Shown here piece after piece: positions 12,642-31,839 of a stretch of 36,536 nucleotides of DNA (the first letter of the stretch is position 1; the number at the start of each line of letters is the position of its first letter). Both the position numbers and the translations under genes were made by a program. The stretch comes from Candidatus Omnitrophota bacterium (GTDB lineage Bacteria > Omnitrophota > Gorgyraeia > B26-G9). The notes under the pieces are model-generated. The model ran no database searches, was not told where the DNA came from, and saw only the letters and a list, made by a program, of their open reading frames with translations. The DNA lies in the NCBI GenBank assembly GCA_023819605.1, contig JAMWCB010000003.1, forward strand, positions 1 through 36,536, read 5' to 3'.

Positions 12642-13648
12642 GACCGCGCACAGCCGCAGCGAGCCAAGGAAAGCGCGAGCAATTCCTGCACAAAAACGCT
12701 GAAATCACGCCGGTGCAAGCCGCACATAAGCATCAAATCGCTATAGTTGGGGGAAAGCCCGGGCAACGGATTGATGTCGATAATTTTCGGAACGCCGGCG
12801 GCATCCAGACGAAAATCGATCCGGGCGATATCCTTAAGTTCCAACGCGCGGAACGCTGCCTGCGCGAACGCCTTGATCATCTGCGTTGTTTCGCGGGGCA
12901 AAATTTCCTCGGCCTTTTCATATTTTATTTTTTCCTGCCACGCGCGTTTATGTTCCAACGAATAGACAAAAAATGCGTTCGCGGTATGCCGCGGCGAAAT
13001 CCGCATCATGCCCACAATCATCGGCTCGGCATTGCCATACACCCCGACCGTCACTTCATCGCCGGGAAGAAATTCCTCGATCAGCGCCGGCTGGCCGTAC
13101 TGCTCCCGGATAAACGCCGTTTTTTTTTCGATGGCGGAATAGTCTGCCGCGACCGAATCCGAAAAAATCCCTTTCGACGATCCCTCCCAGCGGGGCTTGA
13201 CGATAAACCGTCTGCCGTCAAAACCGGCGGCCTGCCGTTTAAGATCGGCCGGCCCGGCAGCCATAACCATATCCGGCACCGGCACACCGGCGTGCTTAAG
13301 CATGACATTGGCCAGATATTTATCGAGGGCTATTCCCAAGGCAATCGCGTCGGAACCGAAGTAAGGTATCTGCAGCCATTCCAGAAGACAGGGGATTTGC
13401 GACTCCCGGCCGCGCGTTTTTCCGCGGCCTTCGGCAATATTCAAAACGAATTCCGGCTTTTCGCTGCGCAGGCGCGCGAACACCGTTTCATCCTGTTCCA
13501 GCCGGACCGCGGTATATCCCATTTTTTCAATTTGCCGCTGGAGGAATTCTATGGTTTCTATTTCGTCGTATTCCTCGTCGCAATCGCCGCCGGAATGTTC
13601 GCGGCGCAAATTATAGGTGATCCCGATACGGCGGATCTGTTTATTCAC
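12638..13648 (-). CDS. ATP-grasp ligase, D-Ala-D-Ala ligase-like (copy 1)
   Basis: IGITYNLR..EEYD, LNIAEG..RESQIP, IVKPRWEGSSKGI, LIEEFLPG, ARIDFRLD, IDINPLPGL; ATGA overlap with the next gene. Confidence 0.9.
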   Translation of the reverse strand: MNKQIRRIGITYNLRREHSGGDCDEEYDEIETIEFLQRQIEKMGYTAVRLEQDETVFARLRSEKPEFVLNIAEGRGKTRGRESQIPCLLEWLQIPYFGSDAIALGIALDKYLANVMLKHAGVPVPDMVMAAGPADLKRQAAGFDGRRFIVKPRWEGSSKGIFSDSVAADYSAIEKKTAFIREQYGQPALIEEFLPGDEVTVGVYGNAEPMIVGMMRISPRHTANAFFVYSLEHKRAWQEKIKYEKAEEILPRETTQMIKAFAQAAFRALELKDIARIDFRLDAAGVPKIIDINPLPGLSPNYSDLMLMCGLHRRDFSVFVQELLALSLARCGCARS

Positions 13649-13671
13649 CGGCTGCCTCCCTGATTCAGATG

Positions 13672-13700
13672 AAAGGGGAATGTCTCAGACATTCCCCTTT
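13672..13700. terminator. Perfect inverted repeat between kamA and the first ligase (stabiliser or partial terminator)
   Basis: AAAGGGGAATGTCT-C-AGACATTCCCCTTT; only a short U-run on the coding strand. Confidence 0.6.
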
Positions 13701-13729
13701 ACCTGCACACGAATCCTCATACGGCGTTC

Positions 13730-14899
13730 TTATCCCTGAGGATTATAGTACTGGATCACCTCATTTTTATAATTACGCAGGGTAACCTGATCTTTGGCCA
13801 GGGAGATCAGATAATTCGGCCCCAGCGGAATCTTGCCTTTGCCTTCGGTGCCGTCAACCACGAACGTCGGGATGCACATACCGCTGGTATGCCCGCGCAG
13901 CTTTTCGATAATCTCAATGCCCTGGTACACGGACGTGCGGAAGTGATTGGCCCCGACCACCGGGTCGCACTGATACAAATAATACGGCCGCACGCGAATG
14001 GCCTGCAGCTTCTGCATGAGCTGTTTCATGACGTCCGGATTGTCGTTGACGCCTTTAAGCAGCACCGCCTGGTTGCTCAACGGAATACCGCAACGCTGCA
14101 GTTTCCGGCAGGCTTCCGCCGCCTGCGGCGTGACTTCCGCCGGATGGTTAAACTGCACATTGATCCAGAGATTTTCATATTTTTCCAGGATACGGCAGAG
14201 CATGGCATCGATCCGCTGCGGATTGACCACCGGCGTGCGCGTGCCGATGCGCATGACTTCTACGCTTTTAATCTGCCGGATTGCCGAAAGAATATAATCC
14301 AAGCGTTCCGAATGCAGCGTCAACGGATCTCCGCCGGAGACAATAATTTCCCGGATCTGCGGCTTATCTTTGACATAGCGCAGCGCCTGATCGATTTCGC
14401 GCAGCGACGGCTCGGCATTTTTCGCTTTCCACAAACGCTTGCGGGTGCAATGCCGGCAATACATGAAACACCGCCCGGTAACCAAAAGCAGCGCCCGATC
14501 CGGATAACGATGGACCAGAAACGGCGTCACCGATGTTTTCTCTTCCGCCAACGGATCCATCGTTTCATGCTCGTTCTCCCGGATTTCCTCCAGGGACGGA
14601 ACGCATTGCCGGCGAATCGGGTCATGCGGATCCATAACATCTTTGATCAACGACAGATAATACGGCGTAATCAGCATTTGGTACGATTTTATCACCTGCT
14701 TGAGCGCGATTTTTACCTGTTCATTTAACGGGAGATACTTGGCAAGTGCTTCGATACTGGCGATAGGATGCCGAACTTCTTGGGTGGACGAAGGTATTTC
14801 TTTTAGGCAAAGCTTCGTACTCGGAGGCTCTTCAAAGTTAGGCTCCGGAGGTTCCTCTGACTTCTGTTCTGTTTTTTTCACCAACTTTTCATTTTCCAC
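13730..14899 (-). CDS. kamA: KamA-family radical SAM aminomutase (lysine 2,3-aminomutase-like)
   Basis: HRYPDR, CFMYCRHCTRKR (CxxxCxxC), SGGDPL, RIGTRTPV, PYYLYQCD, RGHTSG, VVDGTEGKGKIP (PLP lysine); AAGGAG RBS and GTG start. Confidence 0.93.
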   Translation of the reverse strand: MENEKLVKKTEQKSEEPPEPNFEEPPSTKLCLKEIPSSTQEVRHPIASIEALAKYLPLNEQVKIALKQVIKSYQMLITPYYLSLIKDVMDPHDPIRRQCVPSLEEIRENEHETMDPLAEEKTSVTPFLVHRYPDRALLLVTGRCFMYCRHCTRKRLWKAKNAEPSLREIDQALRYVKDKPQIREIIVSGGDPLTLHSERLDYILSAIRQIKSVEVMRIGTRTPVVNPQRIDAMLCRILEKYENLWINVQFNHPAEVTPQAAEACRKLQRCGIPLSNQAVLLKGVNDNPDVMKQLMQKLQAIRVRPYYLYQCDPVVGANHFRTSVYQGIEIIEKLRGHTSGMCIPTFVVDGTEGKGKIPLGPNYLISLAKDQVTLRNYKNEVIQYYNPQG

Positions 14900-16896: not shown

Positions 16897-16945
16897 TTTA
16901 ACGTCGATTGCCTGAAGCATGTTACGTAACAGACGCCATCGGATT

Positions 16946-17782
16946 ATGAAACGCTGCGCAATTATCCTCATCGGTGGTTTATTCTATGCGGCGGCCGCGC
17001 CGGCCGCCCAAGCGCCGACAACAGCGAAAGAGCCGCTGCCGTCCGGCGAATGTGCAACCCTTGCGCCACAATTGACCATCCAGCCGATCGCAACAACGTT
17101 CACACGTTCTGCCCGGCGCGGCCGTCCGGCGCCGGAATTTCAAAACCCCTCCGTTTCAAAAACTTACCGCAGAATTCTCAGCGCGCAAGAAAGCAAGATT
17201 TTGCGCCAGGTGGAAAAAATGTTGATCGATTGGTTCAACACTGCGGCAGAAAAAGAATCGCTCGCGGCGCTAACAGATAGTTTCGAGAATGCGCGCGCCG
17301 GTAAACGCAGAGAGTCGTTATTCAACGAACTTGCCGACACGACCCGGCATTATTATCAAACAATTTTTCAAAAAATATTTTATTACCATGCGCAGCGCAT
17401 TTTGCATCGCTACGGCACCGTACGCACTCTACCCGCGGACGCCACGGAACTCGCCCGCCTGCTCGACCGAGAAGACCAAACGCCTCTATCCGATCTTGCC
17501 AAAGAAGCCCCGGAACAACTCATTCGCGAAACACTTACCCAGCGCATCGATTATTCCCGTTCGCAGCCAGGCAAAGTTCAGAGCAAAAAACTACAATCGA
17601 TCGTAAAAACCATTACCATCGACCCTAACGCATCTTTTGACCTATTGCTCGCGCTGCTGCCGGCGGACGAAGCCGCACGATTACGCCGGGAGCGTGACCA
17701 CGGGAACGGCACCAACAAAAAAATTTCTCCGCAAGTACTATCCCCTCTCCAGGCGAACCACGTTGTGGAAAAATCTCTATAA
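16946..17782 (+). CDS. Hypothetical secreted helical protein
   Basis: MKRCAIILIGGLFYAAAAPAA signal peptide (alternative start 16919); fills the gap between sulP and treT; no recognisable domain. Confidence 0.8.
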   Translation: MKRCAIILIGGLFYAAAAPAAQAPTTAKEPLPSGECATLAPQLTIQPIATTFTRSARRGRPAPEFQNPSVSKTYRRILSAQESKILRQVEKMLIDWFNTAAEKESLAALTDSFENARAGKRRESLFNELADTTRHYYQTIFQKIFYYHAQRILHRYGTVRTLPADATELARLLDREDQTPLSDLAKEAPEQLIRETLTQRIDYSRSQPGKVQSKKLQSIVKTITIDPNASFDLLLALLPADEAARLRRERDHGNGTNKKISPQVLSPLQANHVVEKSL

Positions 17783-17793
17783 CCAAAAAAATA

Positions 17794-19005
17794 TCACAAC
17801 CGTACTACGTCGTTTTCATAATACATGGACAAGAACAGCAAGAGGTAATCCCGCACATGACGGGTCAAGAGAAAATTATTCCGCACATGCTCGCGCCCGT
17901 TTTTTCCCAACTGTTGCGCATAGGCCGGACTATTCAGCAACTGCTTTACGGCAAACGCCGCGCCTTCGATGGAATGGCAGAGCAGCCCGGAATATTTATG
18001 GGTAATCTGCAAGGGAATACCGCCGACCGCCGATGCGACGACCGGCTTGCCTTTCCAGAGGGCTTCCGAAACGGTAAGCCCGAAACCTTCCTTGAGGGAT
18101 TTTTGCATAATCACATCCGAAGCCCGCTGCAGCGCGTTAATTAATAAATCATCCTGCGGCAACAGGAGAATATGTATATCCGGATCCTTGCCCGCCTGTT
18201 CGCGGACTTCCGCCAAGACTTCCAATCCTTCCGGATCGTCGGCGGCAGTGCCGCCGGCCAAAATCAATTGACAGTCGATATGCTTTTTTACCAACTGATA
18301 AACCTTGAGGACTCCCAGCGGATCTTTTAACCGGTCGAAGCGGGAAATTTGGGTAATGATCGGTTTGTCCCGCACAAGACCGTGCTGCCGGATCATCCGT
18401 TCGACGGTTTCTTCCGGCAACTCACGATTTTTATCGCTCAACGGGTCTATGGACGGCGTAATCAAAAACTGCCGGATCGGCAGCGGCCGGGAAAACGACG
18501 GCGAAGAAAACACGCAGCCGTCGTACCGGCGGATAAATCCCATGAGAAACTGCCATACCCCGTCGTCCGGATGCGACACGTCCACATGGCAGCGCCAAAT
18601 CCATTTATTCGACTGTTTTTTTTCAACGAGCATGATCGGCTGGGGATCGTGGATAAACACCACATCGCCGTAAATATTCAACGCGGCGTTATTTTTTCTG
18701 CCGGTATCCAGAAAAATATCGAAATCATCGCGCGTGATCACTTCCGCGCGCCCGTGCAGCGCGTTATGAAATTTCTTCGTCACGCCGAAAAACTGCTCGC
18801 CGCCTTTAATCACGTCCCAACCCGCGCGCACACCCAATTCCTGCAGCAACGGCACCATGCGGTTTAAAATCTCCGCTACGCCGCCGCCCACGGCGGTCGA
18901 ATTGACATTCTGAACCGCCTTGCCGTCGAGCCGTTCGCCCAACCGGCGCAAATCATCGATCACCGCCTGCCCGACAATCGGGACATATTCCGTTAAGTGC
19001 GCCAT
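17794..19005 (-). CDS. treT: Trehalose glycosyltransferring synthase (GT4)
   Basis: VNSTAVGGGVAEIL, TKKFHNALHG, IHDPQP, WRCHVD, PSIDPLSDKN, QISRFDRLKDP, EGFGLTVSEALWK. Confidence 0.93.
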   Translation of the reverse strand: MAHLTEYVPIVGQAVIDDLRRLGERLDGKAVQNVNSTAVGGGVAEILNRMVPLLQELGVRAGWDVIKGGEQFFGVTKKFHNALHGRAEVITRDDFDIFLDTGRKNNAALNIYGDVVFIHDPQPIMLVEKKQSNKWIWRCHVDVSHPDDGVWQFLMGFIRRYDGCVFSSPSFSRPLPIRQFLITPSIDPLSDKNRELPEETVERMIRQHGLVRDKPIITQISRFDRLKDPLGVLKVYQLVKKHIDCQLILAGGTAADDPEGLEVLAEVREQAGKDPDIHILLLPQDDLLINALQRASDVIMQKSLKEGFGLTVSEALWKGKPVVASAVGGIPLQITHKYSGLLCHSIEGAAFAVKQLLNSPAYAQQLGKNGREHVRNNFLLTRHVRDYLLLFLSMYYENDVVRL

Positions 19006-19008
19006 CGG

Positions 19009-19671
19009 TCACCTCGCCGTTGTCTTTTGGATTATCTGAAGAATCGCCGCGCGCAACCCGTCCAGCGTGAACGTGTACGGATCTATCCGCGCTATTTTTT
19101 CCGCCGCCTCCGTCTGCCCCAAAGAATCGGCCAGCCAGTTTGAAAAATCGTTATTTCCTTTTTCAAGGCGCAGGCGCGCTTCAAACATATGGAAATAAAT
19201 CACCGGCAGGCTGACCGCCGCCAGTGCCGCGGTAAACTCCGCGAGCGTGCGCGCGAAAATTCCGGTCGGGACAATGAAACTTACGGATTTAATCACCTGA
19301 AACTCTTCCCCGCCGCGGCAGGCGCGCTCGCGAGCCGCCGGATTGCGCCCCAGATAATCTTCCAGGAGAAAAATAAACCGTTCGCGCACCGCGCGAATCG
19401 TCGGATAATCGATAATATTGACGCTGGCCAACTGCTCGGCCAATTCGTCTTCGCCCAACGCTTCCCGCACCCAGTACGCGAAATCATTCGGCGGCTCGGG
19501 CGAAACAAAGAGATGCTGCTGCAAAAACCGGTGCGTGTGATGATACATACACGCGCCCGGAACTTCCCGCAACAGGGCCAACAATTCTCCGGCGGTCGAC
19601 GCTTTCAAGCCGGTCAGTTCCGACAAATTAAACCGCGTGTAAAATTGAAACGGTTCCCGCTCCATATTCAC
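19009..19671 (-). CDS. DUF5752-like protein, a common TreT partner
   Basis: Duplicated motif YHH..NDFAYW / YFH..NDFSNW; adjacent to treT. Confidence 0.8.
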   Translation of the reverse strand: MNMEREPFQFYTRFNLSELTGLKASTAGELLALLREVPGACMYHHTHRFLQQHLFVSPEPPNDFAYWVREALGEDELAEQLASVNIIDYPTIRAVRERFIFLLEDYLGRNPAARERACRGGEEFQVIKSVSFIVPTGIFARTLAEFTAALAAVSLPVIYFHMFEARLRLEKGNNDFSNWLADSLGQTEAAEKIARIDPYTFTLDGLRAAILQIIQKTTAR

Positions 19672-20468
19672 CTCCGCATCGTTTCGCGCGCAAACATACG
19701 CAGCACTTCGATAACCTCCGCCTGCGTCTCAACGCAATACTGCGCCCCGGATCTTTTCTGCCGGCCGACGACAATTCCGACATCGCTTTCCCGCAAAATC
19801 CGGAACACGTCCTCGTCGGTGCGATCATCGCCGATATAGACCGCCACCCGCTCCCGCGGCGGTATCCCGCTCTGCCGCCACAGCCATCGCACCGCGTGCC
19901 CTTTATTCCAGGGGCGCGCCGGCCGCGCCTCCCGGACCAACGCGCCTTCGAGCGTTTCCAGCATTCCCTGTTCCCGCCACGGCCGAATACAGTGCTGGAA
20001 ACAGGATCTCACCGTACGCCGCCGCTGTGCCGCAACCGCGCGGTAGTGGAGCGCCACGGAAAACAGCTTGCCCTCGATCAACACGCCGGGAATATCGGCG
20101 CACACCCGCCGCAAACACCGTTCTACCGCAACCAGCGCCTGCGCGATTGCCGGCGATAATTTCCGCGTATAAGCGCCCTGCGGGGTCTGAATACACCAGC
20201 CGTGATCGCCGGCATAGGAAATATCCGGGATCGCCACCCGGCGGCGCAAATCCGCCAATGGCCGGCCGCTGACCACCGCGAGGCGGACGCGCGGCAACGC
20301 CGCGCACTGCCGCAGCACGCGACGCACCGCCGGCGCTAACCGCGCCTGTTCCGGCCGCGCGGCAAACGGCGCCAGCGTGCCGTCATAATCCACACCAAGC
20401 ATCACCTGCCGCCCGGCCAGTTTCCGACAAATCTCCGCTTGCGCGCGCCGGAAATCTTGAGGCATCAT
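19668..20468 (-). CDS. otsB: Trehalose-6-phosphate phosphatase (HAD)
   Basis: DYDGTL, VSGR, ALHYR, WNKG, YIGDDRTDED. Confidence 0.94.
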   Translation of the reverse strand: MMPQDFRRAQAEICRKLAGRQVMLGVDYDGTLAPFAARPEQARLAPAVRRVLRQCAALPRVRLAVVSGRPLADLRRRVAIPDISYAGDHGWCIQTPQGAYTRKLSPAIAQALVAVERCLRRVCADIPGVLIEGKLFSVALHYRAVAAQRRRTVRSCFQHCIRPWREQGMLETLEGALVREARPARPWNKGHAVRWLWRQSGIPPRERVAVYIGDDRTDEDVFRILRESDVGIVVGRQKRSGAQYCVETQAEVIEVLRMFARETMRR

Positions 20469-22735
20469 GCGTCCCGTTTCAAAGCCATTAATTCATTAAA
20501 AATCGTCCCGGCCCAGCGGAAAATATTATTCTCTTTGACCAGCGCGCGCATCCGTTCCATACGGCGCTGTTTTTCCTCCACCGGCATCACGATCGCCTGG
20601 TGCACCCCCTGCGCAAATTCTTCGATCGAATAGGGGTTGATCTGCACCGCATCGGTCAATTCACGCGCCGCGCCGGTAAACTTACTGAGCACGAGCATAC
20701 CGTTCAAATCATCTTTTGCCGTCACGTATTCTTTAGCCACCAAATTCATGCCGTCATGCAGCGAACTGACGATGCAGATATCGCCAACCTGATAATAAGG
20801 CAATATCTCGTCCTGGGAAAAATGATGTTTAAGATAGATGATCGGTTTCCACGTTCCGTCGGAATAATTCCAGTTTATTTTCTCGACCAGCTCATCCAGT
20901 TCGCCGAGCAGGTCGTGATAGCGTTTAATATGGGTGCGGCTGGGCGCCGCCAACTGCAACAATACGAATTTTCCCCGGTACTCCGGATAGCGGGTCAATA
21001 AACGGTCAACGGCAAGCATTCGTTCGTTCAATCCTTTCGTATAATCGATACGGTCGACGCCGACCGCGACAATTTTACCCTCCAGCGAAAATTCTTCGCG
21101 CAGCCGGCGTACGCCGCCGCTCACCGCCGGCTGCCCACGTTCGGAACCGGCAACGGCCACGCTGATCGGAAACGGACGGACAAGGGTTTCGTGCCCGGCG
21201 CAATGCACGCTGAATTTTTCCGTATCGATCCGCGATTCTAAAAAACGGTTGGCGGTTTCCAAAAAATTATTACAATGGAACTGCAAATGAAATCCGATCA
21301 AATCGCAGCCGAGCATGCCGTCTAATATTTCCTGCTGATAGGGGCAAATCGCGAACACTTCCGGATTCGGCCAGGGGATATGCCAAAACAGAGCGACCGT
21401 CACGTCCGGCCGCCGCGCTTTAATCATCCGCGGCAAGAGCGTGAAATGATAATCCTGAATAAACACGAACGCATGCCCATCCTGCGGCAGTTCTTCGAGC
21501 AGAGCGTCGGCAAAACGCTGGTTAACTTTTTGATACATCTGCCAATCGGCACTGCGGAACAGCGGCCGCGTATGCGTAATATGACAGAGCGGCCACAGCC
21601 CTTCATTGGCAAATCCGTAGTAATATCCCTGCTCTTCCGCTTTCGAAAGCCAGACGCGTTTGAGCACGTAGCGGATATCTTCCGGCGGCACGCCCACCTT
21701 ATCTTTGGCATTGACAAAAGCGCGATCCGCGCTGCCGCTGCCGTGCGCCAGCCACATACCGCCGCAGGCGCGCAAAATCGGGTCAAGCGCGGTCACGACC
21801 CCGCTGGCCGGACGCACGCATACCGGACGGTTCGTCTGCTGATTCACGATATGCATATAAGGCTCGCGGTTGGACACCGCGAAAAACCCGTGGTCGCCGA
21901 GTTTAGCCACGACGATATCCCGCAATTTTTTCTCCGTCCATAATTCCGTGTTTTCCAGCCGCGCCGACGCGGTGTCCGCAACCGCCCGCCGCGCGACCCG
22001 CAAACTCAGCGCAACCTGTTCCACTTCTCCGGCCAACGCCCGCATCTCATCAGCGCCTTTAATCGACGAAAACGCGCTGGTTTCTCCGCGATGAAACCGG
22101 CGGAACCAATCGGTCAGCTGCCGCAGCGGAAAAATAAACAGCCGCCACTGCATGAGCACGCTCACGCAAAACAGCAGAATAACCAGCACGATTACCGGCA
22201 TACCGATGCGCTCCCAGAGCTGCGCTAAACGAAAAAAGACATAGGAGGTATCATAGACTACTTCCACCATGCCTAAGCGGCGGCCGGCAGCATCACTGAC
22301 CGGTAGGCGGTATCGGTACAGCACATACTCCTGATACCGTTCCAGCGAAGTAGCCGCGCCTGACTCCACCGATTCCGGAAGAGGCATGGCCGGCGAAAAT
22401 TGTTCCTGGAGGAAAGCAATCCGCCGAGTTATGGCGAAAATCTTGCCGGCTTCATCATACAGAACGCAGCCCTGAAAATTTTTCCGCGTTTCAAACCGCT
22501 CGACCAGCCGCTGCGCTGCCGGAACATCCCGCTGCGCCAGCACATACTGCGCGGACACTTCCAGGCTTTCCGCCACCGCGCGCGCTTTCCGCTGCAACTC
22601 GTCGAGCAGGCGGTTTTCTTCCCGGCGGACGTTCCAAATCCCGTAACCGATCAGAACCGCGCACACCACGATGAGAATGGGCAAAAAGAAAAGAATTAAG
22701 CGTTTCAAAAAGCCTCCCCTGAATCTCCCCGACAC
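20465..22735 (-). CDS. otsA: Trehalose-6-phosphate synthase (GT20) with an N-terminal TM-periplasmic-TM-HAMP-like module
   Basis: [67 protein letters not shown]; about 260 extra N-terminal residues with two hydrophobic helices. Confidence 0.94.
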
Positions 22736-22798
22736 TATCCGTTACGGCCGTCTGAAAATACCGTGAGAAGAACACTACTGGCGCACATCCGGAGTGAT

Positions 22799-22831
22799 AA
22801 AAAAACGCCATCCGGATAATTACGGATGGCG
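22799..22831 (-). terminator. Leader terminator (expression platform) upstream of otsA
   Basis: CGCCATCCG-TAATTATC-CGGATGGCG-TTTTTTT. Confidence 0.85.
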
Positions 22832-22880
22832 GCCCGACCATCGACAATGCCTCCGAAGCGGTTGCTTCGGACCCTTAATT
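22826..22880 (-). ncRNA. Candidate Na+-sensing (DUF1646-type) riboswitch aptamer
   Basis: AAGGG-TCCGAAGC-AACC-GCTTCGGA-GGCATTGTCGATGGTCGGGCCGCC between promoter and terminator; the 3' end overlaps the terminator stem. Family match recalled from memory, not searched. Confidence 0.6.
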
Positions 22881-22883
22881 TTT

Positions 22884-22911
22884 AGTATAACGCCGCTCAA
22901 CAAGATGTCAA
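22884..22911 (-). promoter_or_regulatory. Sigma70 promoter of the trehalose operon
   Basis: TTGACA-16 nt-TATACT; the -35 overlaps the suhB stop codon. Confidence 0.75.
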
Positions 22912-23726
22912 GAAGTAATCCCGGTTTTTCCGCTTGTTAATGCCGGCGGACGGCGGTGCAGCACCGCCCGCATCGCCCGGTGCAGCCGCCCATTGGACGC
23001 CAGCATATTTCCCGCCGCATGGTCATAAGGTTTGCCGTCGAAACCGCTTATTTTTCCGCCGGCGCACTCGATAATCAAACCGGCCGCCGCCGTGTCCCAG
23101 GGCTTCAAATCCAGTTCCCAAAACCCGTCGAACCGGCCGCCGGCGACATAGCATAAATCCAGCGCCGCCGCGCCGGCGCGGCGCACGGCCATGCTGCGCA
23201 TGATAAACGCCGCGAAATGATCGAGATTATTTTCCTTTTTTTCCCGCACCTGGTAGGAAAAGCCGGTCGCCAAAAACGCGCGGTCCAAGCGCGCCTGGCG
23301 GGAAACCGCAATCCGCTGCCGGTTCAAACGCGCCGCTTCACCGGCAGCCGCGGTAAACAGTTCATCGCGCACCGGATCATAGACCACCCCCACCACCATG
23401 CGCCCGTCCTGTTCCAAGGCGATGGATACGCAAAAAAACGGGAACTGGTGGGCGAAATTCGTCGTGCCGTCCAGCGGATCGATAATCCAGCGTGCCGACC
23501 GGCCGGCCTCTGCCGGGCGCTCCTCCGCCAGTATCCCGTACGCGGGAAAATCTTTTTTCAACCTGCGCACAATCATTTCTTCCGCGCGCACATCGACATT
23601 CGTCACGATATTTATCGCGCCTTTATATTCAACCTGTTTTGGCCGGCGAAGATTTTTCCGGATAAACGAACCGGCATTTAAAGCCGCGGCGACCGCGGCT
23701 TTTTTTTCCTTCTGAAATTTCATCAT
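22908..23726 (-). CDS. suhB: Inositol monophosphatase family protein
   Basis: WIIDPLDGTTNFAH, RRAGAAALDL, LKPWDTAA. Confidence 0.93.
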   Translation of the reverse strand: MMKFQKEKKAAVAAALNAGSFIRKNLRRPKQVEYKGAINIVTNVDVRAEEMIVRRLKKDFPAYGILAEERPAEAGRSARWIIDPLDGTTNFAHQFPFFCVSIALEQDGRMVVGVVYDPVRDELFTAAAGEAARLNRQRIAVSRQARLDRAFLATGFSYQVREKKENNLDHFAAFIMRSMAVRRAGAAALDLCYVAGGRFDGFWELDLKPWDTAAAGLIIECAGGKISGFDGKPYDHAAGNMLASNGRLHRAMRAVLHRRPPALTSGKTGITS

Positions 23727-24961
23727 CGTTTAAGCCGTTGAATATCCGCCGTGAGCCGCTCCCCAATATCCGGGTGCAATCCCACATACACCGCGGCAAT
23801 CACCCCGTCCCGCCCGACCACGACCACCTGCGGAATCGACTCCACGCCTAATTGCCGGGCAAACGCCGCGCCGCCGTCGAAAAAAACCGGTAATTGATAA
23901 CCGTTCTGCGCGATAAATTCCGCGACCACGTCTTTTTCTTCCGCGCTCACCGCTAAAAATTGCACCTGCGCATCGGTTTTCCATTCCTGGTACCATTGAT
24001 CGAGCAACGGCAGTTCTTTCTGACAGGGCGGGCACCAGCTTGCCCAAAAATCGATGACCGCGATCTTATTTTTAATCTGCGCGCGCTTAAACAGCTGACC
24101 CCGCGCGTCGAGGAGCGTAAAATCCGGACAGGGTTTGCCGACCAGCGGATGCTCCGCGCCCTGCGGCGATTCCCCCGCGTCCGGCGCGCCGACCGCTGCG
24201 CTCATATCCATTACTTCCACGCCTTCCGGCGGCGTATAGGAAAACAGCTCGTCCGGCAATTCTTTATTTTGCGCGACCTCCGTATACACAACCTGCGATA
24301 ACCGCCGCTGCTGCGCATTATACACTTCGATTTTTTCGCAATACGCGCCGGCCGTATTCCAATAGTAACTCATCTTTTCCGGAATGGTCTCCGCGCCTGC
24401 CGGATTGCCTTCCGCCTGCAAACGCTGCTCTATTTTTTTCCGCGCGGCCTCGGTCATCTGCAGCCGCACAATCTGAACGCGATACCCGTCGGACTGCGAC
24501 TCCTCAACCTGCACCGGCGCGTAGGTCTCGAGCACTCCCCGAAACTGCGCGGCGGGACTGAACTGCGCCAGCAGCATTTTTCCCTGCTCGCTGTCCGGCG
24601 CGGTGAGCACCTTCATCGCCCGCACGGACTTTCCTTCCGGCGTGCGCTGTTCCTGCCAAAACGTCGCGCCGTCGTACACGGACAAACTGTGCACGGTTTG
24701 GCCGTCGGGCAAGCCGCTGACCGCAAGCTCGGCGCGGAATTTATCCGGGTATTTCTGGCGCACCGGGCCGCTGACCGTTATTTCCATGCCGCTCATCGAA
24801 TTCGTCTGGCGGATAGTCGCGGAAAAATTCCGCACTGTTTCATACCGGGCCTGTATTTCTTTGACCAACATCGCGGGGCTGATTTCTTCAGCGGCCGCCG
24901 CGTACCCGGTCCAGACCCCGACGACGATCACCGCGCTCACGCACAATTTCCGTATCTGCAC
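23723..24961 (-). CDS. Exported LolA-like fold fused to a TlpA/ResA thioredoxin
   Basis: AAAGGAG RBS and GTG at 24961, signal peptide, KYPDKFRAE..VYDGATFW..LPDELFSYTPPEGVEV, then PDFTL..IDFWASWCPPCQKELP. Confidence 0.85.
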   Translation of the reverse strand: MQIRKLCVSAVIVVGVWTGYAAAAEEISPAMLVKEIQARYETVRNFSATIRQTNSMSGMEITVSGPVRQKYPDKFRAELAVSGLPDGQTVHSLSVYDGATFWQEQRTPEGKSVRAMKVLTAPDSEQGKMLLAQFSPAAQFRGVLETYAPVQVEESQSDGYRVQIVRLQMTEAARKKIEQRLQAEGNPAGAETIPEKMSYYWNTAGAYCEKIEVYNAQQRRLSQVVYTEVAQNKELPDELFSYTPPEGVEVMDMSAAVGAPDAGESPQGAEHPLVGKPCPDFTLLDARGQLFKRAQIKNKIAVIDFWASWCPPCQKELPLLDQWYQEWKTDAQVQFLAVSAEEKDVVAEFIAQNGYQLPVFFDGGAAFARQLGVESIPQVVVVGRDGVIAAVYVGLHPDIGERLTADIQRLKR

Positions 24962-24992
24962 ACATACTCCTTTCTGCTTCCGTTCGCCGGCT

Positions 24993-25748
24993 TCACACGC
25001 ATATCCGCAACCCGTCGCGGGCCACCCGCGCCTGCGGAAAAACCTGCCGCGCCTGCGCCTGCGCCTGCGCCCGCTGCGCGGTCGTGCGATAAACCTGCGC
25101 GTCAAAATGCGTCAACATCAGTTGTTTGGCCCCGGCCTGCCGCGCCAATCCCGCCGCCTTATGCGGATCCAGGTGCGGCCACCCGCCGTCATCCTGCCCC
25201 AATTGCAGCGCGCATTCCGTAATTAAAATATCCGCGGCGCGCGCCAATTTCACCGCGTTTGCACAGATACCGGTATCCGTGCAATAGGCCAGCGTCCTGC
25301 CGGAGAGTTCGAAACGATAACCGAAACAGACGGACGAATGCACCAGCGGCAGCGCGATACCGCCGCCGCCCGGCAAGGAAAACCGCCGCGGCACCGAACG
25401 CAACTCCACGGGAAACGGCAACTGCGCCAGCGGCACCGTCAACGGCTGCGCGCACAAACGCCGCACCGCCGCGCGCAATGCCGGCGGCGTAAAAATCGTC
25501 AGCCCGCGCGCAAACGAAAATTTCGCCAACACGTGCAAACCGACGGTATGATCCAGATGGGCGTGGCTTAAAAACAAATACACCGGCTTCTGTTGATCGA
25601 TAACGCTGTCCAGCTTATGCAAGCCATAGCCGGCGTCGAGAATCACCACGCATTCCGGCGTATCGGCCACCGCGCAGACCGTACTGCCGGTGGGTGAATC
25701 AAACCAGCCGTTCGTCCCTAAAAACGTAATCTGTATCGCTTTTTTCAT
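24993..25748 (-). CDS. Metallo-beta-lactamase fold hydrolase, RNase Z/BN-like
   Basis: ITFLGTNG, LDAG, SHAHLDH, YCTDTG, WPH, LTHF. Confidence 0.88.
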   Translation of the reverse strand: MKKAIQITFLGTNGWFDSPTGSTVCAVADTPECVVILDAGYGLHKLDSVIDQQKPVYLFLSHAHLDHTVGLHVLAKFSFARGLTIFTPPALRAAVRRLCAQPLTVPLAQLPFPVELRSVPRRFSLPGGGGIALPLVHSSVCFGYRFELSGRTLAYCTDTGICANAVKLARAADILITECALQLGQDDGGWPHLDPHKAAGLARQAGAKQLMLTHFDAQVYRTTAQRAQAQAQARQVFPQARVARDGLRICV

Positions 25749-25769
25749 TGCCTACCTTGCCGGACATCG

Positions 25770-26144
25770 TCAGCGCAAATCATCGGACAGGTCGTAGCGG
25801 ATCAGCGCCAGTATCGCCGCGTGCGGCACAATCACATATTTTACATTTTCGAATTCGAATTCCACCGCGGCGCTGCGCAGGAAAATCGCCCGGTCATGCT
25901 CGCGCGCCTGCAAAGGCACATAATGCGGCGTCGCCGCCTCGCGGGCTTCGGCCCACGGTTCTTTGTGCAAATCCTGAGGATCGGCCACCGGCGTACCCGG
26001 CCCGACGCTGACCACCTTGCCGCTATGGACTTTTTCCTTCTCGTACGTTCCCTGGGGAAGATAGAGCCCGGAATTGGTCATTTCCTTTTGATCATCGGGC
26101 TTGATCAGCACCCGATCGCCGACGATTATCAATTCGCGCTTCAT
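25770..26144 (-). CDS. GroES-family co-chaperonin, stand-alone
   Basis: IVGDRVLIKPD..TNSGLYLP..GKVVSVGPG..AILALI. Confidence 0.88.
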   Translation of the reverse strand: MKRELIIVGDRVLIKPDDQKEMTNSGLYLPQGTYEKEKVHSGKVVSVGPGTPVADPQDLHKEPWAEAREAATPHYVPLQAREHDRAIFLRSAAVEFEFENVKYVIVPHAAILALIRYDLSDDLR

Positions 26145-26459
26145 GGTAGAGCGTATTATAACACACAATCATGGCAAGAAAAAAATTTTTTGGGCACTGT
26201 CTAAGCGGAAAGCAGGAATAATTTTCTGTGCGCCGACAGAGAAAGTTATCTTTGAAATGGCAATGCTAATGGTGGCCATACGCCAAACTGAGCAACCAGC
26301 AAAAAATAATCAACAAAAATGAGCAAAAATGTACTCTATCCGGTATAATTATTGCTGAAACTTGGATAACAATCGTGCCTAAAAGCGTACCCGTGAAATT
26401 ACGGGATCAACACATGTATTCACGTTAAACGAAATTATAAACACAACCATCGGTAACCA

Positions 26460-27299
26460 ATGAAAAAAAATACGTTAACAATTTTTACCTGCCTGCTTTT
26501 TACGGCCACCATTCCCCATCAAGCTCTTTGTGCGTCATTTCTTTCGCCTCGCCTATCAATTAATCAAAAAAATTTTAATAATACCATTGCCGCGCCTTAT
26601 CCAGATCGTGCGATAATAAATCCATCCTCTCTCCCTACCATGGTTGATCTGGATATTTTAGAAGACACGGTTTTTTCCGGAAAAACAGAAGAAGTTTATT
26701 TAATGATCCAGCAGGCGACCGCAGCCAATGATCATTTCCTATGGTTTATTCCGGAAGAAGATGACGACGATAGCTTTTTAAAGTATCAACCGGAATATAA
26801 TAATGTCGCTCTTTCCGTAAAGGGACAAATTTTTGCTGATAAAATAACCGCGCAGATACAACAATTCGCCGATCGGTATGATTTTTCTTAGGATATCTAT
26901 GAACATCCCTTCGCACAGATCGCGGAAGAACTGCTTTCCAACCTCTGGCGGCACTCTAACGCGTGGGGCATATTTGCCGTTCGGCTAATCCCCAAACCCG
27001 GACAAAGTGAAATAATTCTCGAAATCAGCCTTATTGACCATGGCGATGGCATTGATGATATCGATGCGATATTAGAAGGCGAATTTGAAAGGAAAGACAG
27101 TCCGGGAGAAGGGATTGCCAATTTAAAAAAAATATATAAAAATTTCGGAATACCCAGCGAGTTCATATTCAACAGCGAAACTCAAAAAAACTATCACGGC
27201 ACCGCCGTAACCATAAAACTATTTTCTCGACAAAAGATTAATACTCCTTTACTCAAAAAAGAAATAAACTATTCACATTTTTTTTCTTCTGCCGTTTAA
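26460..27299 (+). pseudogene. Signal-peptide protein with an RsbT/RsbW-like GHKL ATPase domain, interrupted by an in-frame TAG at 26889-26891
   Basis: The frame stays open for 135 codons after the TAG: EELLSNLWRH (N box), DHGDGI (G1), PGEGI (G2), HGTAVTI, ending in TAA at 27297-27299. Region is visibly AT-rich. Confidence 0.75.
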
Positions 27300-27310
27300 T
27301 CTTCTGCTCA

Positions 27311-27541
27311 TCATTTCCCGGTCAACACATCAATGCGTTTTTTATCAAATCCGACAATGACTTCCCCGTCGATCACCACCACCGGCACGCCCATCTGTCC
27401 GGAAACTTCTACCATTTTCTGCGCTTCCGCCTCATCCTGGGAAACATCCACTTCGGTATACGCAAACCCCTTGGCGGAAAGGTACTGTTTGGCAAGTTTG
27501 CAATACGGACAGGTCGGCGTCGAATAGACGGTAATATCCAT
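27311..27541 (-). CDS. Glutaredoxin-like protein (NrdH/YruB type)
   Basis: VYSTPTCPYC, SGQMGVPV, IVGFD. Confidence 0.93.
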   Translation of the reverse strand: MDITVYSTPTCPYCKLAKQYLSAKGFAYTEVDVSQDEAEAQKMVEVSGQMGVPVVVIDGEVIVGFDKKRIDVLTGK

Positions 27542-27542
27542 G

Positions 27543-28040
27543 CTATCGCTCCTTGTTAAAATAACTTTTCAACTGGCACAATTTCACCAAATGTTTCTTT
27601 TCTTCGCGGATAATCCGGTCAATCACCGGCTGTTGTGCGTTCACGATACGATCGCGCAGCGCGCCATAAGCTAAAATGGAATCCTTTTCCAGCGCGATGC
27701 CGAACTCTACCGCGGCAATTTCCGTAGGAAAATGCTCTTTAATTTTTTGCGCAATCAGCTGCGGCGTGACGATAAACTCCGCGGCGATCGCCTGCATATA
27801 GAGCTCCCACTCCTGCGGACTGTTATCCACCACGACGTATTCCGTCAAATTATCAAGGATCTCTTCAAAAATCTCGCGGTGCCGCACTTCCTCGGCGCGC
27901 AAAAAATGCCAAATACTCCGCACCCGTTCGTCCATGGCGCGATGTTCCAGCGCCGCGTACAGCTGCTCGCCATTGTGTTCGACGTCCACGGCGATTTTCA
28001 GCAACTCCGCCGGACTGATACCCGCGGGAATCTTCTCCAT
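27543..28040 (-). CDS. Ferritin-like (rubrerythrin-family) diiron protein
   Basis: IAVDVE, EEVRH, IALEKDS, EEKKH. Confidence 0.88.
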   Translation of the reverse strand: MEKIPAGISPAELLKIAVDVEHNGEQLYAALEHRAMDERVRSIWHFLRAEEVRHREIFEEILDNLTEYVVVDNSPQEWELYMQAIAAEFIVTPQLIAQKIKEHFPTEIAAVEFGIALEKDSILAYGALRDRIVNAQQPVIDRIIREEKKHLVKLCQLKSYFNKER

Positions 28041-28055
28041 AGCTCCCTTCCTGCG

Positions 28056-29234
28056 TTACGTCGTTAAACGTTTTTTCACTTCCGCCGCCACGGCGCATAG
28101 TTGCGCCAACTCCGCGGCGTCGGGAATATAGCGCACATAGTGGCCGTCATCCATCGGCTCAATCCCGGCTTCGCGCAAAAAATCCGTCAACATTTTAAAA
28201 CCCACGGTTGACCAACCGTACGAACCGAATGTCACCCCATAGCGATTGCGCGGCTTAAGGCCGCGCACATAAGTCAGGAACGCGCCCACCGTCGGCAACA
28301 CATTATTATTCAAAATAGAACTGCCCACCAACACGCATTTGCTGCGCATCACCTCGGTTATCACATCGGACAAACCGCTGGTCTGCAGGCTCAGCAAAGA
28401 AACCGGGATATTCTCTTTTTCTATCGCGTAAAACAATGCCTGCGCCATTTTTTCCGTGGAATGCCACATCGAATCATAAATGATCACCGCGCGGTTTTCC
28501 GCTTCATAGCGCGCCCAGCGGCCGTACAAATCGACGATCCGGCGAATATCTTCCGGCCGGCGCCAGAACAAACCGTGCGACGGCAAAATCATCTCCAGCG
28601 GCAACGCTTGGAGCGCCTCCAACACTTTTACCACCTGGTTGCCGTAAGGCATGACGATATTCGCGTAATACTTCGCCGCCTGCTCGCAGACACGGTCAAT
28701 GCCGTATTCGTCGGCGAAACGTTCCGGCGAAGCGATATGCTGGCCGAACGCGTCATTGGGAAACAAAATGCGGTCTGCCGGCGAATAGGTGGCCATCGAA
28801 TCCGGCCAATGCACCATCGGCATCAGGAAAAACTGCAGGCTGCGGCGTCCGATGGACAGCGTGTCGCCGGTATTGACCACTTTAAATTTCCAATTTTTCT
28901 TAAAATGGCGCCGCAAGCCTTCTTCGCCTTTCGGCGAACAGACGACCTCCGCCTGCGGGCAATAGGCCAGCAGTTGCTCGATGGTTCCGGAATGGTCCAT
29001 TTCCGTGTGATTGGAAATAATATAGCGGATATTTGCCGGGTCAATGACCGCGCGGATCCGCGCGAGCATCTCGTCGAATCCGTAGGATTTTACGGTGTCA
29101 ATCAACGTCGGCTTTTCGTCGAGCACGATAAACGCATTATACGTCGAGCCGGCCGGCGTCGCGTAACCGTGAAAATTCCGCAAATTCCCGTCGATAAAAC
29201 CGACCCAATGGATCTCGTTTTTAATCAGACTCAT
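28056..29234 (-). CDS. fprA: Flavodiiron protein (O2/NO reductase)
   Basis: GSTYNA, NHTEMDHSG, HWPDSM, NDAFGQH, PSHG, flavodoxin YDSMWHST..FGSYGWS. Confidence 0.95.
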   Translation of the reverse strand: MSLIKNEIHWVGFIDGNLRNFHGYATPAGSTYNAFIVLDEKPTLIDTVKSYGFDEMLARIRAVIDPANIRYIISNHTEMDHSGTIEQLLAYCPQAEVVCSPKGEEGLRRHFKKNWKFKVVNTGDTLSIGRRSLQFFLMPMVHWPDSMATYSPADRILFPNDAFGQHIASPERFADEYGIDRVCEQAAKYYANIVMPYGNQVVKVLEALQALPLEMILPSHGLFWRRPEDIRRIVDLYGRWARYEAENRAVIIYDSMWHSTEKMAQALFYAIEKENIPVSLLSLQTSGLSDVITEVMRSKCVLVGSSILNNNVLPTVGAFLTYVRGLKPRNRYGVTFGSYGWSTVGFKMLTDFLREAGIEPMDDGHYVRYIPDAAELAQLCAVAAEVKKRLTT

Positions 29235-29266
29235 CTGCTCTGCCTCTGCGCCCGTACTGCCGCGTC

Positions 29267-29779
29267 TTAACGTTTTTTATCGCCGATCGTCAGCCGAATA
29301 TCGTCGCGAATCGCTTCCAAATCCTCTTCATGCATAATCTCATCCTGGAGGATCTGCAACACCACATCATACGTCACCGGGTCGCGATCTTTCGTATAAT
29401 CGATCAATTTTTTATACACGCCGATCGCGCACTGTTCGCCTTTAATATTTTGCTCCAGCAACAGGCGCACATCCGGATCATTCGGGCGGTCGTAGCCGCA
29501 ATTCGTATACTTCATCCACTCCGCCGGCTCAAGCAAGGGCGTGCCGCCTAATTGAATAATCCGGGTCGCGACCATACCGGCATGGCGCAACTCGTCCGCG
29601 GCGTGCTGCGTCAATTCCGCGACGACCGCTTCCCGCGGAATACCGCGCGCGACCTGCGCGCCGATCCAATATTGATAGTATGCCAGCCATTCATCGGCAA
29701 ACGCCCGGTTCAACAACGCAATCAATTCTTCGACATTGACGCCAAGACTTTCCAACAACGCTCTTCCTTTGGTACCCAT
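29267..29779 (-). CDS. DPS-like (DpsL-type) ferritin-family protein
   Basis: AFADEWLAYYQYW, DELRHA, RIIQLGG, GEQCAI, DEIMHE. Confidence 0.88.
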   Translation of the reverse strand: MGTKGRALLESLGVNVEELIALLNRAFADEWLAYYQYWIGAQVARGIPREAVVAELTQHAADELRHAGMVATRIIQLGGTPLLEPAEWMKYTNCGYDRPNDPDVRLLLEQNIKGEQCAIGVYKKLIDYTKDRDPVTYDVVLQILQDEIMHEEDLEAIRDDIRLTIGDKKR

Positions 29780-29793
29780 GGCCTCTTCCTCCG

Positions 29794-29931
29794 TTATACC
29801 GGTTCAAACTGATCTTTGCCGACGCCGCATTCCGGACATACCCAGTCCGCCGGCAGATCGGCAAACGCGACGTTGTTGTTTTCCGCCGGATCATACACGT
29901 ACCCGCATACCACGCATCGATACTTCTTCAT
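29794..29931 (-). CDS. Rubredoxin, short 45-aa form
   Basis: [32 protein letters not shown]; GAGGAGG RBS. Confidence 0.95.
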
Positions 29932-29959
29932 CCGTTGATTCCTCCTCTTCAGCGTCCGC

Positions 29960-30283
29960 TCATTTCGGCAAATACGGCCGGACGATCTGCGCCAGCTTAT
30001 CCTTCGACTGCGCGCCGACGTTCTGGGTAACCACGTTCCCTTTATCAAAAACCATCAGCGTCGGGATGCTCATCACGCCGTACTGCGAAGCGATCTCCGC
30101 CGCCTCGTCGACATTTAACTTGCCCACTTTCAATTTTCCCGCGTATTCCCGGGAAAGTTCGTCGATGGTCGGCGAGAGCATACGGCAGGGGCCGCACCAT
30201 TCCGCCCAAAAATCGACCAGCACCGGCAGAGATGATTGAATCACTTCTTTTTCAAAATTTTCCGTCGTCAGCGTAACTGCCAT
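29960..30283 (-). CDS. trxA: Thioredoxin
   Basis: [18 protein letters not shown]. Confidence 0.96.
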
Positions 30284-30338
30284 ACCCGACTCCTTTCTCT
30301 ACAAAACAGCGCGTTTCCGGCGCTGTTCGCGGTCAATG

Positions 30339-30833
30339 TCAATCGTCTTCGCCTCGCTTCGCCAATTGCCGGTCAATCATCAACAGCGCCGCCGAATCCG
30401 GTTTAACGCGCTTGAGCATCGCCACAATATCCGCGGCATTTTTCTCCTCTTCCACCTGCTCGCTGACAAACCATTGCAGAAAGACTTCTGCCGCCGGATC
30501 CGCGGTTTCCCGCGCCAATGCGTATAATTTATGAATTAAGGACGTTACTTTCGCTTCATGCGCCCGCACCTGTTCAAACAATTCCAAAGCCGAGCCGAAT
30601 TCCGCCGGCGGCTCGCCGATAGCTTTCAGCGCCACCGCCTGGCCGCAATCGTTAAGATAGGCAAATAATTTCATACCGTGTTCCGTCTCTTCTTTTGCCT
30701 GCGCTTGCAGCCAATGCGCCATGCCCGGCAAATCCTGGGTTTCCGCCCAGGCGGACATCGCTAAATAAAGATACGCGGAGTAAAACTCATGATTGATCTG
30801 CTCGTTAAACGCTTTCGCTAATTTTTTTTCCAT
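30339..30833 (-). CDS. ftnA: Non-heme ferritin
   Basis: NEQINHEFYSAYLYLAMS, EETEH, FLQWFVSEQVEEE. Confidence 0.94.
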   Translation of the reverse strand: MEKKLAKAFNEQINHEFYSAYLYLAMSAWAETQDLPGMAHWLQAQAKEETEHGMKLFAYLNDCGQAVALKAIGEPPAEFGSALELFEQVRAHEAKVTSLIHKLYALARETADPAAEVFLQWFVSEQVEEEKNAADIVAMLKRVKPDSAALLMIDRQLAKRGEDD

Positions 30834-30859
30834 ATGCTCCGACTCCTGTGTTGAACTGG

Positions 30860-31255
30860 TTATACAACGGTAATTTCTTTCGCATTCTCCCACGCCCCGT
30901 GAATATTGCAATACCCGCCGGCCAGCAAGACCCCGGATTTTTCCGTTTTCAGAGAAAAGACGGCGACGGGCTGCGTGAACACCGTACTCGTATCCGGCCC
31001 CTGGATCGATGCGCCGTGGCTGGAAAATTCACAACGGCCGATCTGATACGGAAACTTCTCCCCGTTCGGTAAAAAATACAATTCTACCGCCGCGATGTGA
31101 TGCGCGGCAGTGTTCGGATGCGCGATCTGTTTGCCGACGCTGACCGTTACCGTTACTGCCTCGCCTTTTTTCAGCGTATCCGCGCACTCGATGACCGGAA
31201 CGTGTTTTTCCGCTTTCCAATCCGCCGACTGATAAAGATCTTTCATCATTGCCAT
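30860..31255 (-). CDS. Superoxide reductase, 1Fe neelaredoxin type
   Basis: EKHVP, HPNTAAHHI, CNIHG; no desulforedoxin domain. Confidence 0.94.
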   Translation of the reverse strand: MAMMKDLYQSADWKAEKHVPVIECADTLKKGEAVTVTVSVGKQIAHPNTAAHHIAAVELYFLPNGEKFPYQIGRCEFSSHGASIQGPDTSTVFTQPVAVFSLKTEKSGVLLAGGYCNIHGAWENAKEITVV

Positions 31256-31279
31256 GGAACGACCTCCTCGCCTCATCGG

Positions 31280-31792: not shown

Positions 31793-31839
31793 GCCTTCCT
31801 CCTTTGTTCTTTCCCTGCCTGCCCAGCGGCCGCGCCGGT

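Follow-up and report, generated by a model that had tools for sequence, protein, structure and literature searches.

The C-terminal sorting signals of the sortase, exosortase and rhombosortase systems (LPXTG, PEP-CTERM and GlyGly-CTERM) are lineage specific and were found by genome statistics. A second sorting step in Bacteroidota, to the cell surface, is governed by a short motif that immediately follows the signal-peptide cleavage site, the lipoprotein export signal (LES). PDZ domains read C-termini such as the Y-x-F of outer-membrane proteins (DegS) and non-polar tails (Prc/Tsp), and the peroxisomal targeting signals PTS1 and PTS2 address folded enzymes by terminal peptides alone; for type II substrates, exported by Sec or Tat and released in a secretin-dependent manner, we know of no linear signal. 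Here we describe a class of exported proteins, about 40–50 per genome, with a two-ended peptide tag from one family of the Omnitrophota, ultra-small bacteria that are widespread, have not been cultured and presumably live at the expense of other cells. Two of its members, gene A and gene B, lie in the window (the whole stretch analysed, 36,536 nucleotides), contig C64 of a 181-contig genome (G000; 2.26 Mb, 53.8% GC, 92.7% complete). A housekeeping protein of the window has its best matches almost exclusively in metagenome-assembled genomes of 'Candidatus Omnitrophota bacterium'. Abstracts on the phylum portray it as host-dependent or predatory. Each member joins a signal peptide, an N-proximal motif (N-motif) and a C-terminal tail (C-tag) around a cargo. 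We read genes A and B as belonging to a lineage-specific, Sec-exported class whose tag is a post-Sec sorting or secretion address, a reading to which we give a probability of about one half.

The tag shares features with each of several described signals and coincides with none. Like LES, the N-motif is short and follows the signal peptide; unlike LES, which is acidic and placed after a lipidated Cys, it has no conserved Cys and no lipobox, and a C-terminal tag is added. Sortase-type signals are likewise C-terminal and found on many unrelated exported proteins, but they consist of a motif, a transmembrane helix and a basic tail, whereas the proteins here stop directly after [AS][ILV]. Type I secretion substrates have no N-terminal signal peptide and a C-terminal signal of tens of residues; all tagged members have an N-terminal hydrophobic signal. 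PDZ-read C-termini and PTS1/PTS2 resemble the tag in that a few terminal residues are the whole signal, but their sequences differ, and in none of them does a Sec signal occur together with an N-proximal motif and a C-terminal tail.

Cargo of the Bacteroidota type IX secretion system (T9SS) comes close in architecture: a Sec signal peptide, which tagged members also carry as read from their sequences, is paired with a C-terminal signal on many unrelated cargos, the system is lineage restricted with dozens of substrates per genome, and a barrel with weak PorP/SprF likeness adjoins tagged genes in two Omnitrophota relatives. The T9SS signal, however, is a folded β-sandwich domain of about 70–100 aa according to the abstracts of PMC11285876 and PMC4804311, whereas conservation here covers about 6–9 terminal residues, disordered in AlphaFold2 (AF2), and not a folded C-terminal domain (CTD). 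No T9SS CTD model is among the Pfam and NCBIfam matches of 35–36 members, and an N-proximal motif is not known from T9SS cargos. The RxLR proteins of oomycetes and the PEXEL proteins of Plasmodium, in large lineage-specific repertoires, also combine a signal peptide, a short motif within tens of residues and a fast-evolving, unrelated effector domain (see also PMC5908963), but these belong to eukaryotic pathogens, use another motif sequence and have no C-terminal partner motif.

A tag pair conserved across one Omnitrophota family

The tagged class was defined by a signal peptide, the pattern L-[SA]-P-x-[LIV]-x-[IL] within about 70 aa and a C-terminal [AS]-[ILV], and was counted in a greedy set of 1888 open reading frames (ORFs) of G000 ending in a stop. 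The strict form L[AS]P[QR]L[ST]I, which the first-pass annotation had proposed to scan for on the strength of genes A and B, gave five matches in the six-frame translation of the genome against 0.2 expected (0–1 in each of 20 shuffles), all directly following an N-terminal hydrophobic stretch. In loosened form the N-motif follows a hydrophobic stretch in 96 ORFs, the [AS][ILV] ending occurs in 98, and 39 ORFs combine the two (odds ratio 20, Fisher p 3e-28); setting aside two of the 39, by eye, as membrane proteins leaves a set of 37. In a crude selection of 416 signal-peptide-like ORFs, the [AS][ILV] ending occurs in 24 of the 44 that have the N-motif and in 5 of the 372 that lack it. The tags are thus missing from most exported proteins and mark a subclass rather than a general feature of export.

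The [AS]-I ending is found in 54 of the 1888 ORFs, where composition predicts 1.0%, and 31 of these belong to the set of 37. Ten of the other 23 have N-termini running off a contig end, so that their membership cannot be judged; the true number of members in G000 is probably 45–55. These cut ORFs, at contig ends such as those of C55, C104, C138, C62, C96 and C16, indicate that contigs are prone to end within tagged genes or next to them, which may reflect paralogy or strain variation. Many tagged members abut contig ends.

Members span 141 to 3082 aa and make up 4.0% of coded residues (27,639/692,430 aa) in about 2% of ORFs. They are lower in GC than the remainder (median 50.7% versus 54.5%, p 9e-8) and often stand in tandem, as on contigs C104, C13, C98, C117, C44 and C130. 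Two traits that had been noted for genes A and B thus do not belong to the family: their near-equal length is a coincidence given this spread, and solitary placement does not hold where members form arrays.

Among the 37, the N-motif has L in all, S or A in 34 and P in 30, followed by R/Q/x, L/V/I, any residue and I/L; it continues with a hydrophobic position (Φ) four residues on and then A-F (xxxx-Φ-xx-A-F). It sits some 5–25 residues past the signal peptide and alternates in a strand-like pattern. The proposed check of the C-termini also revealed a common motif, with a hydrophobic residue at −4, then E/Q/D/S, Q/N/R, S or A and a last residue that is I (31), L (5) or V (1), so that all 37 end in an aliphatic residue that would suit a PDZ groove. 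The overall tag, Φ-Φ-[E/x]-[Q/x]-[AS]-[I>L,V]-COOH, is conserved only in the last 6–9 residues. The N-termini read as Sec-type: a basic n-region, a hydrophobic core and an A-x-A-like end (AWA, AQA). A Cys is frequent before the N-motif but not conserved, which rules out a lipobox. Neither tag matches a Pfam or NCBIfam model in the 35–36 members scanned. No shared promoter was found either: no 7-mer within 150 nt upstream of 34 members survives multiple testing, and the best ones reflect the C-termini of tandem upstream genes.

Many members share an unusual signal core, ..(I/V)(L/I)(I/V)-Q-A-(F/L)-L..D..W-A, with a polar Q and D inside the hydrophobic region. Examples lie on G000 contigs C117, C13 and C176 and in an array on contig C3 of a relative, G010; genes A and B do not have it.

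A hidden Markov model (HMM) of 36 N-motif windows of G000, termed A1, finds 39 matches in that genome and 2–16 in each of the 17 other genomes of the same taxonomic family (17/17). Beyond the family, the single sister-family genome (1/1) and one of 22 genomes from other families of the class gave marginal matches. In a sample of 401 genomes drawn evenly from the phylum, A1 matches at E<=1e-3 are confined to G000 and the 3/3 family genomes; none of the 397 Omnitrophota genomes outside the family, from >70 other families, has one.

The C-termini of relatives follow suit. We fetched the best 40 ORFs, of which 36, from 12 other genera, have a stop in the stretch, and 31 of these 36 end in [AS][ILV], with endings such as L-V-E-Q-A-I, I-I-E-Q-A-I and L-I-G-Q-A-I and the consensus Φ-Φ-E-Q-A-I-COOH. 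Nine loci of relatives hold 107 ORFs, 11 with the N-motif and 11 with the C-tag, 10 of them with both. Ten consecutive genes make up the G010 array (C3: 55,680-83,386), each with a signal peptide and N-motif; the closing residues are [AS][ILV] in nine of them and G-V in the remaining one. Two homologues of the G000 member C27 from other genera keep both tags at 33–36% identity, and a related-locus search with C27 returned 39 pattern matches, none confirmed. Within one Omnitrophota family, then, at least 13 genera have the two tags together, and their protein sequence is conserved. G017:C220 and G000:C62 are both 36,843 bases long, G017 has 8% contamination, and the two may be one sequence binned into both genomes.

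The motifs are short, and the first-pass annotation, with two examples, had allowed that their resemblance might be chance. Dozens more double-motif proteins, here and in every searched genome of the same family, lie far above chance, the opposite of the outcome that it had named as refuting its idea. Motif codons vary (six Leu codons, TCN/AGC/GCN, ATT/ATA/ATC, all three stops) and the 3′ flanks of tagged genes are unrelated to one another, so the conservation is at the level of protein and not DNA; neither a cassette boundary nor a repeat can account for it. An origin of the resemblance in chance, in compositional bias or in repeated DNA is excluded by the match and co-occurrence statistics, by conservation across genera with differing codons and flanks, and by the lack of A1 matches in the 397 genomes outside the family, and retains a negligible probability.

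Cargo domains between the tags

The cargo scan covered 35 members or candidates of G000; 18 gave no Pfam match. Recognized cargos are HATPase_c; several S-adenosylmethionine (SAM)-methyltransferase folds including UPF0146; HPr with PPDK_N, and PPDK_N; B12-binding and radical SAM domains (both weak matches); HD with cytidine deaminase, GNAT, FHA (twice) and HTH; and, of ordinary periplasmic type, LysM with YkuD, LysM and a solute-binding domain (SBP_bac_3). Relatives add arginine-deiminase-like, PEP-utiliser, DHH, TPR, Kdo-transferase-N with HD and, again, HATPase_c cargos.

Two members could be compared with untagged homologues. The methyltransferase member on contig C96 (372 aa) has a 509-aa Omnitrophota homologue that keeps the signal peptide, the motif C-L-A-P-V-L-Q-I and the end ...V-D-Q-S-I; its other 13 homologues are 242–273 aa long, and the two inspected start at the enzyme core and end without a tag. 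For the UPF0146 member on C104, only residues about 105–232 are common to 90 other proteins, most of which are stand-alone and <180 aa, with one domain inside a 5552-aa protein. The tags have been added onto domains whose untagged homologues are plain cytoplasmic enzymes, and the earlier claim of a shared N- and C-terminal signature on interchangeable, unrelated cargos is strongly supported. An AF2 model of the C96 member is confident for the core (about 88–350) and falls below a predicted local distance difference test (pLDDT) score of 50 for residues 1–9, 11–88 and 351–372, which places the tags on flexible extensions.

Two tags that go together, on flexible tethers, would also suit head-to-tail assembly: the N-motif of one protein would bind the C-tail of another, so that the many tagged enzymes would join outside the cytoplasm into chains or into a scaffolded layer, as a 'split' version of the giant multi-domain proteins seen in other Omnitrophota. 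The strand-like alternation of the N-motif and the frequent tandem arrays fit such a scheme, as does the occurrence of a UPF0146 domain like that of C104 within the 5552-aa protein; methyltransferase, histidine-kinase ATPase and radical SAM types are also listed for giant Omnitrophota proteins in a 2026 preprint (10.64898/2026.06.07.730766). Yet the two termini of the C96 member are disordered in its AF2 model and lie away from each other, and giant ORFs of the family are themselves tagged (7423 aa in the relative G004, 3082 aa in G000), which argues that the tags do not replace size. We consider assembly unlikely. A complex prediction pairing the N-motif alignment with the C-tail alignment scored 0.00 against a mark of 0.32, was run without controls and counts neither way.

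The cargos and signal peptides bear on a further alternative, retention, in which the N-terminal segment would be an uncleaved anchor, or the tags would fix proteins to the producer's own envelope (peptidoglycan, surface layer), and the cargos would act there and not in another cell. LysM and L,D-transpeptidase cargos are envelope proteins, several signal peptides have polar Q and D in the hydrophobic core, and most long Omnitrophota proteins are reported as predicted to be membrane-anchored (10.64898/2026.06.07.730766). Set against this, the core is preceded by basic residues and followed by the A-x-A-like ends of cleaved Sec signals, and cargos that depend on ATP, SAM or Fe-S have no obvious role in the producer's periplasm. 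Retention seems to us somewhat less probable even than assembly.

Gene A, gene B and their surroundings

All long genes of the window lie on the minus strand except genes A and B, which, as the first-pass annotation had it, are the only plus-strand genes: no other plus-strand ORF of at least 100 aa is free of overlap. Gene A has all three features of the tagged class; gene B has them only if an in-frame TAG is read through (Table 1).

Table 1 Features of gene A and gene B in the window
Feature	Position	Strand	Description
Gene A	16946..17782	+	Intact ORF, 278 codons, tagged protein; starts MKRCAIILIGGLFYAAAAPAAQA, ends ...HVVEKSL*
Gene A signal-peptide-like N-terminus	16946..17014	+	MKRCAIILIGGLFYAAAAPAAQA; basic n-region, hydrophobic core, A-Q-A end (read from sequence)
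Gene A N-motif	17060..17080	+	LAPQLTI, residues 39-45; A1 HMM match 17039-17107, E 0.0016
Gene A C-tag	17762..17779	+	VVEKSL, then TAA; fits C-terminal logo Φ-[EQDS]-[QNR]-[AS]-[ILV]
Low-GC island holding gene B	26101..27600	.	39-41% GC versus about 55%
Gene B	26460..27299	+	279 codons with in-frame TAG; starts MKKNTLTIFTCLLFTATIPHQALCA, ends ...HFFSSAV*
Gene B N-motif	26541..26561	+	LSPRLSI, residues 28-34, after signal-peptide-like MKKNTLTIFTCLLFTATIPHQALCA; A1 HMM match 26514-26597, E 2.2e-6
In-frame TAG splitting gene B	26889..26891	+	After codon 143; the frame remains open for a further 135 codons
Gene B GHKL (HATPase_c)-like cargo	26907..27221	+	Below Pfam threshold
Gene B C-tag	27279..27296	+	FFSSAV, then TAA; read from sequence and C-terminal logo

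An alternative upstream ATG at 16919 would lengthen gene A to 287 aa. Its cargo is helical and has no family match in the Pfam and NCBIfam scans; a homologue search of 5.8 billion proteins returned only gene A itself, the ESM Atlas gave no usable match, and a single-sequence AF2 model (mean pLDDT 38) is not interpretable. The public gene call (protein P0002) is 187 aa long and starts at the internal M92, leaving out the signal peptide and N-motif, so proteome-based scans would miss gene A.

Gene B was proposed as a 279-codon gene. Frame and tags are indeed present, but the TAG was overlooked, and the intact ORF is 143 aa only. TAG is an ordinary stop in G000, where it terminates 164 of 981 complete ORFs of at least 300 aa; the TAG of gene B accordingly points to a pseudogene, to a polymorphism or to an error of the assembly, and the gene probably represents a recently inactivated or horizontally acquired family member. 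The suggestion that it encodes a GHKL ATPase is weak but plausible: HATPase_c scores E 1.7e-4 (22.4 bits, under the 26.4 cut-off), and the strong HATPase_c member C27 shares 35% identity over 69 aa in the N-box/G1-box region, with the N-box and DxGxG aligned. Neither the search of 5.8 billion proteins nor PDB sequences gave a match to gene B. The cargos of the two genes are unrelated, as had been claimed, and, as to the reported AT-richness, gene B has 39.3% GC and gene A 53.3%, against 55.0% for the window. Sigma-70 and terminator scans around both genes stay at shuffle level.

The surrounding genes include a minus-strand oxidative-stress cluster (window 27543-33011), of a kind typical of strict anaerobes, with a PerR-like regulator and flavin reductase-like, rubrerythrin/nigerythrin-like, desulfoferrodoxin-domain, ferritin, Dps-like and flavorubredoxin-like FprA genes. 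Two separate sets look like compatible-solute synthesis (window 11183-14899 and 17794-22735). In the first, a KamA-family lysine-2,3-aminomutase-like gene adjoins two tandem D-Ala-D-Ala-ligase-like ATP-grasp genes and a GNAT gene; the other is a trehalose set of TreT-like, trehalose-phosphatase and OtsA-like genes, the last with a long N-extension.

Proposed sorting, candidate machinery and what the tag would mean

If the tag is a post-Sec address, a tagged protein would be exported by Sec and lose its signal peptide, after which a periplasmic or outer-membrane receptor would read the N-proximal motif together with the free C-terminal tail; a C-terminal-peptide-binding domain of PDZ or TPR type would be the obvious kind of reader. 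The receptor would then direct the protein through the outer membrane, onto the cell surface or into a cell of a host or prey, where ATP- or SAM-dependent cargos could work. A bolder version would make the tag an effector address, delivering >40 cytoplasm-type enzymes per genome through Sec and a dedicated outer-membrane route into another cell. This prokaryotic counterpart of RxLR/PEXEL would carry kinase-like ATPases, methyltransferases, deaminases, radical-SAM enzymes and giants of up to 7423 aa, with a TraF_2/PorP-like barrel as candidate shuttle; we put it forward tentatively, as a possibility we doubt more than we believe. The first-pass annotation had gone this far, and its bipartite signature and interchangeable cargo held up; delivery of effectors stays a conjecture, as some cargos are of ordinary periplasmic type and no dedicated machinery emerged from the loci and phyletic patterns examined.

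That barrel is the best lead to the machinery, and a lead only. A TraF_2-type outer-membrane barrel with weak PorP/SprF likeness lies directly upstream of the G010 array (G010:C3:54012-55481) and, in the relative G002, directly upstream of a tagged gene; it is about 490–580 aa long and ends ...I-G-F or ...M-A-F. A search of 41 genomes with its Pfam model found it in 11 of 17 from the family, in the one sister-family genome and in none of 22 from other families. The same model did not detect it in G000 or in 6 of the 17 family genomes, and it adjoins tagged genes in only 2 of 11 loci examined.

G000 encodes eight secretins and five PDZ proteins, and secretin counts are only modestly higher inside the family (5–11) than outside it (2–7). 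Member C76 adjoins an ExeA-like ATPase, a GspC-like protein and a secretin, part of a conserved double-secretin locus (small HTH protein, ExeA-like ATPase, GspC-like protein, secretin, a 700-1000-aa protein, second secretin and several coiled-coil/TPR proteins) that is split in G000 over contigs C76 and C8; the two secretins lie about 4 kb apart in the six family genomes whose loci were fetched. A second locus, on C102, has a matrixin-like (M10) metalloprotease with a signal peptide (G000:C102:2357-3613) between a secretin and a small barrel plus PDZ protein, and is possibly a secreted-protease locus.

PDZ proteins also underlie a reading in which the tag pair controls the maturation or lifetime of exported proteins and not their destination: a periplasmic PDZ protease of the Ctp/Prc or HtrA type would dock at the hydrophobic C-tail or take it as a degron, and the N-motif would be a propeptide or the place of cleavage. 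A free C-terminus ending in a small and then an aliphatic residue is the kind of ligand that PDZ proteases read, the tags are predicted to be disordered and accessible, and one of the five PDZ proteins shares a locus with a secretin and the matrixin-like metalloprotease. But a degron would need no strictly co-occurring N-motif, PDZ proteases are universal (they occur in the control genomes) whereas the tags are limited to one family, and the marking of about 4% of coding capacity for degradation is hard to explain. We judge such processing improbable, on a par with assembly.

Several points also weigh against the sorting address that we favour. The signal peptides were called by visual inspection and a hydrophobicity rule, and A1, built from G000 windows, could miss versions that have diverged in other families. 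As Sec substrates, radical-SAM and further cofactor enzymes would be odd, and with LysM plus YkuD, LysM and SBP_bac_3 among the cargos, 'effector' does not fit all members. No receptor or translocon for the tags was identified among the loci and phyletic patterns examined, and no secretion locus is regularly linked to tagged genes. The ExeA-like ATPase is class-wide (35/41 genomes), so the double-secretin locus is not specific to the tags, and the membrane-anchored PDZ protein of C102, beside its secretin and matrixin-like protease, was found in only 6 of 17 family genomes.

Full-text literature searches and look-ups in passages of three Omnitrophota papers (10.64898/2026.06.07.730766, 10.1101/2023.11.21.568195 and PMC10066038) found no mention of the motif pair. 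Those passages do describe signal peptides for long proteins whose domains are regulatory or metabolic, as well as type II secretion system-like loci near giant genes. Public gene calls can hide the tag, as the annotation of gene A without its first 91 residues illustrates. If the tag is a sorting address, its linear, peptide-sized signal would serve as bait for the receptor and translocon, a kind of signal hitherto lacking for secretin-based secretion. Being simple to search for, the tag would directly supply the candidate secreted or delivered proteins of the whole family, and it would account for the signal peptides on cytoplasmic-type enzymes in Omnitrophota.

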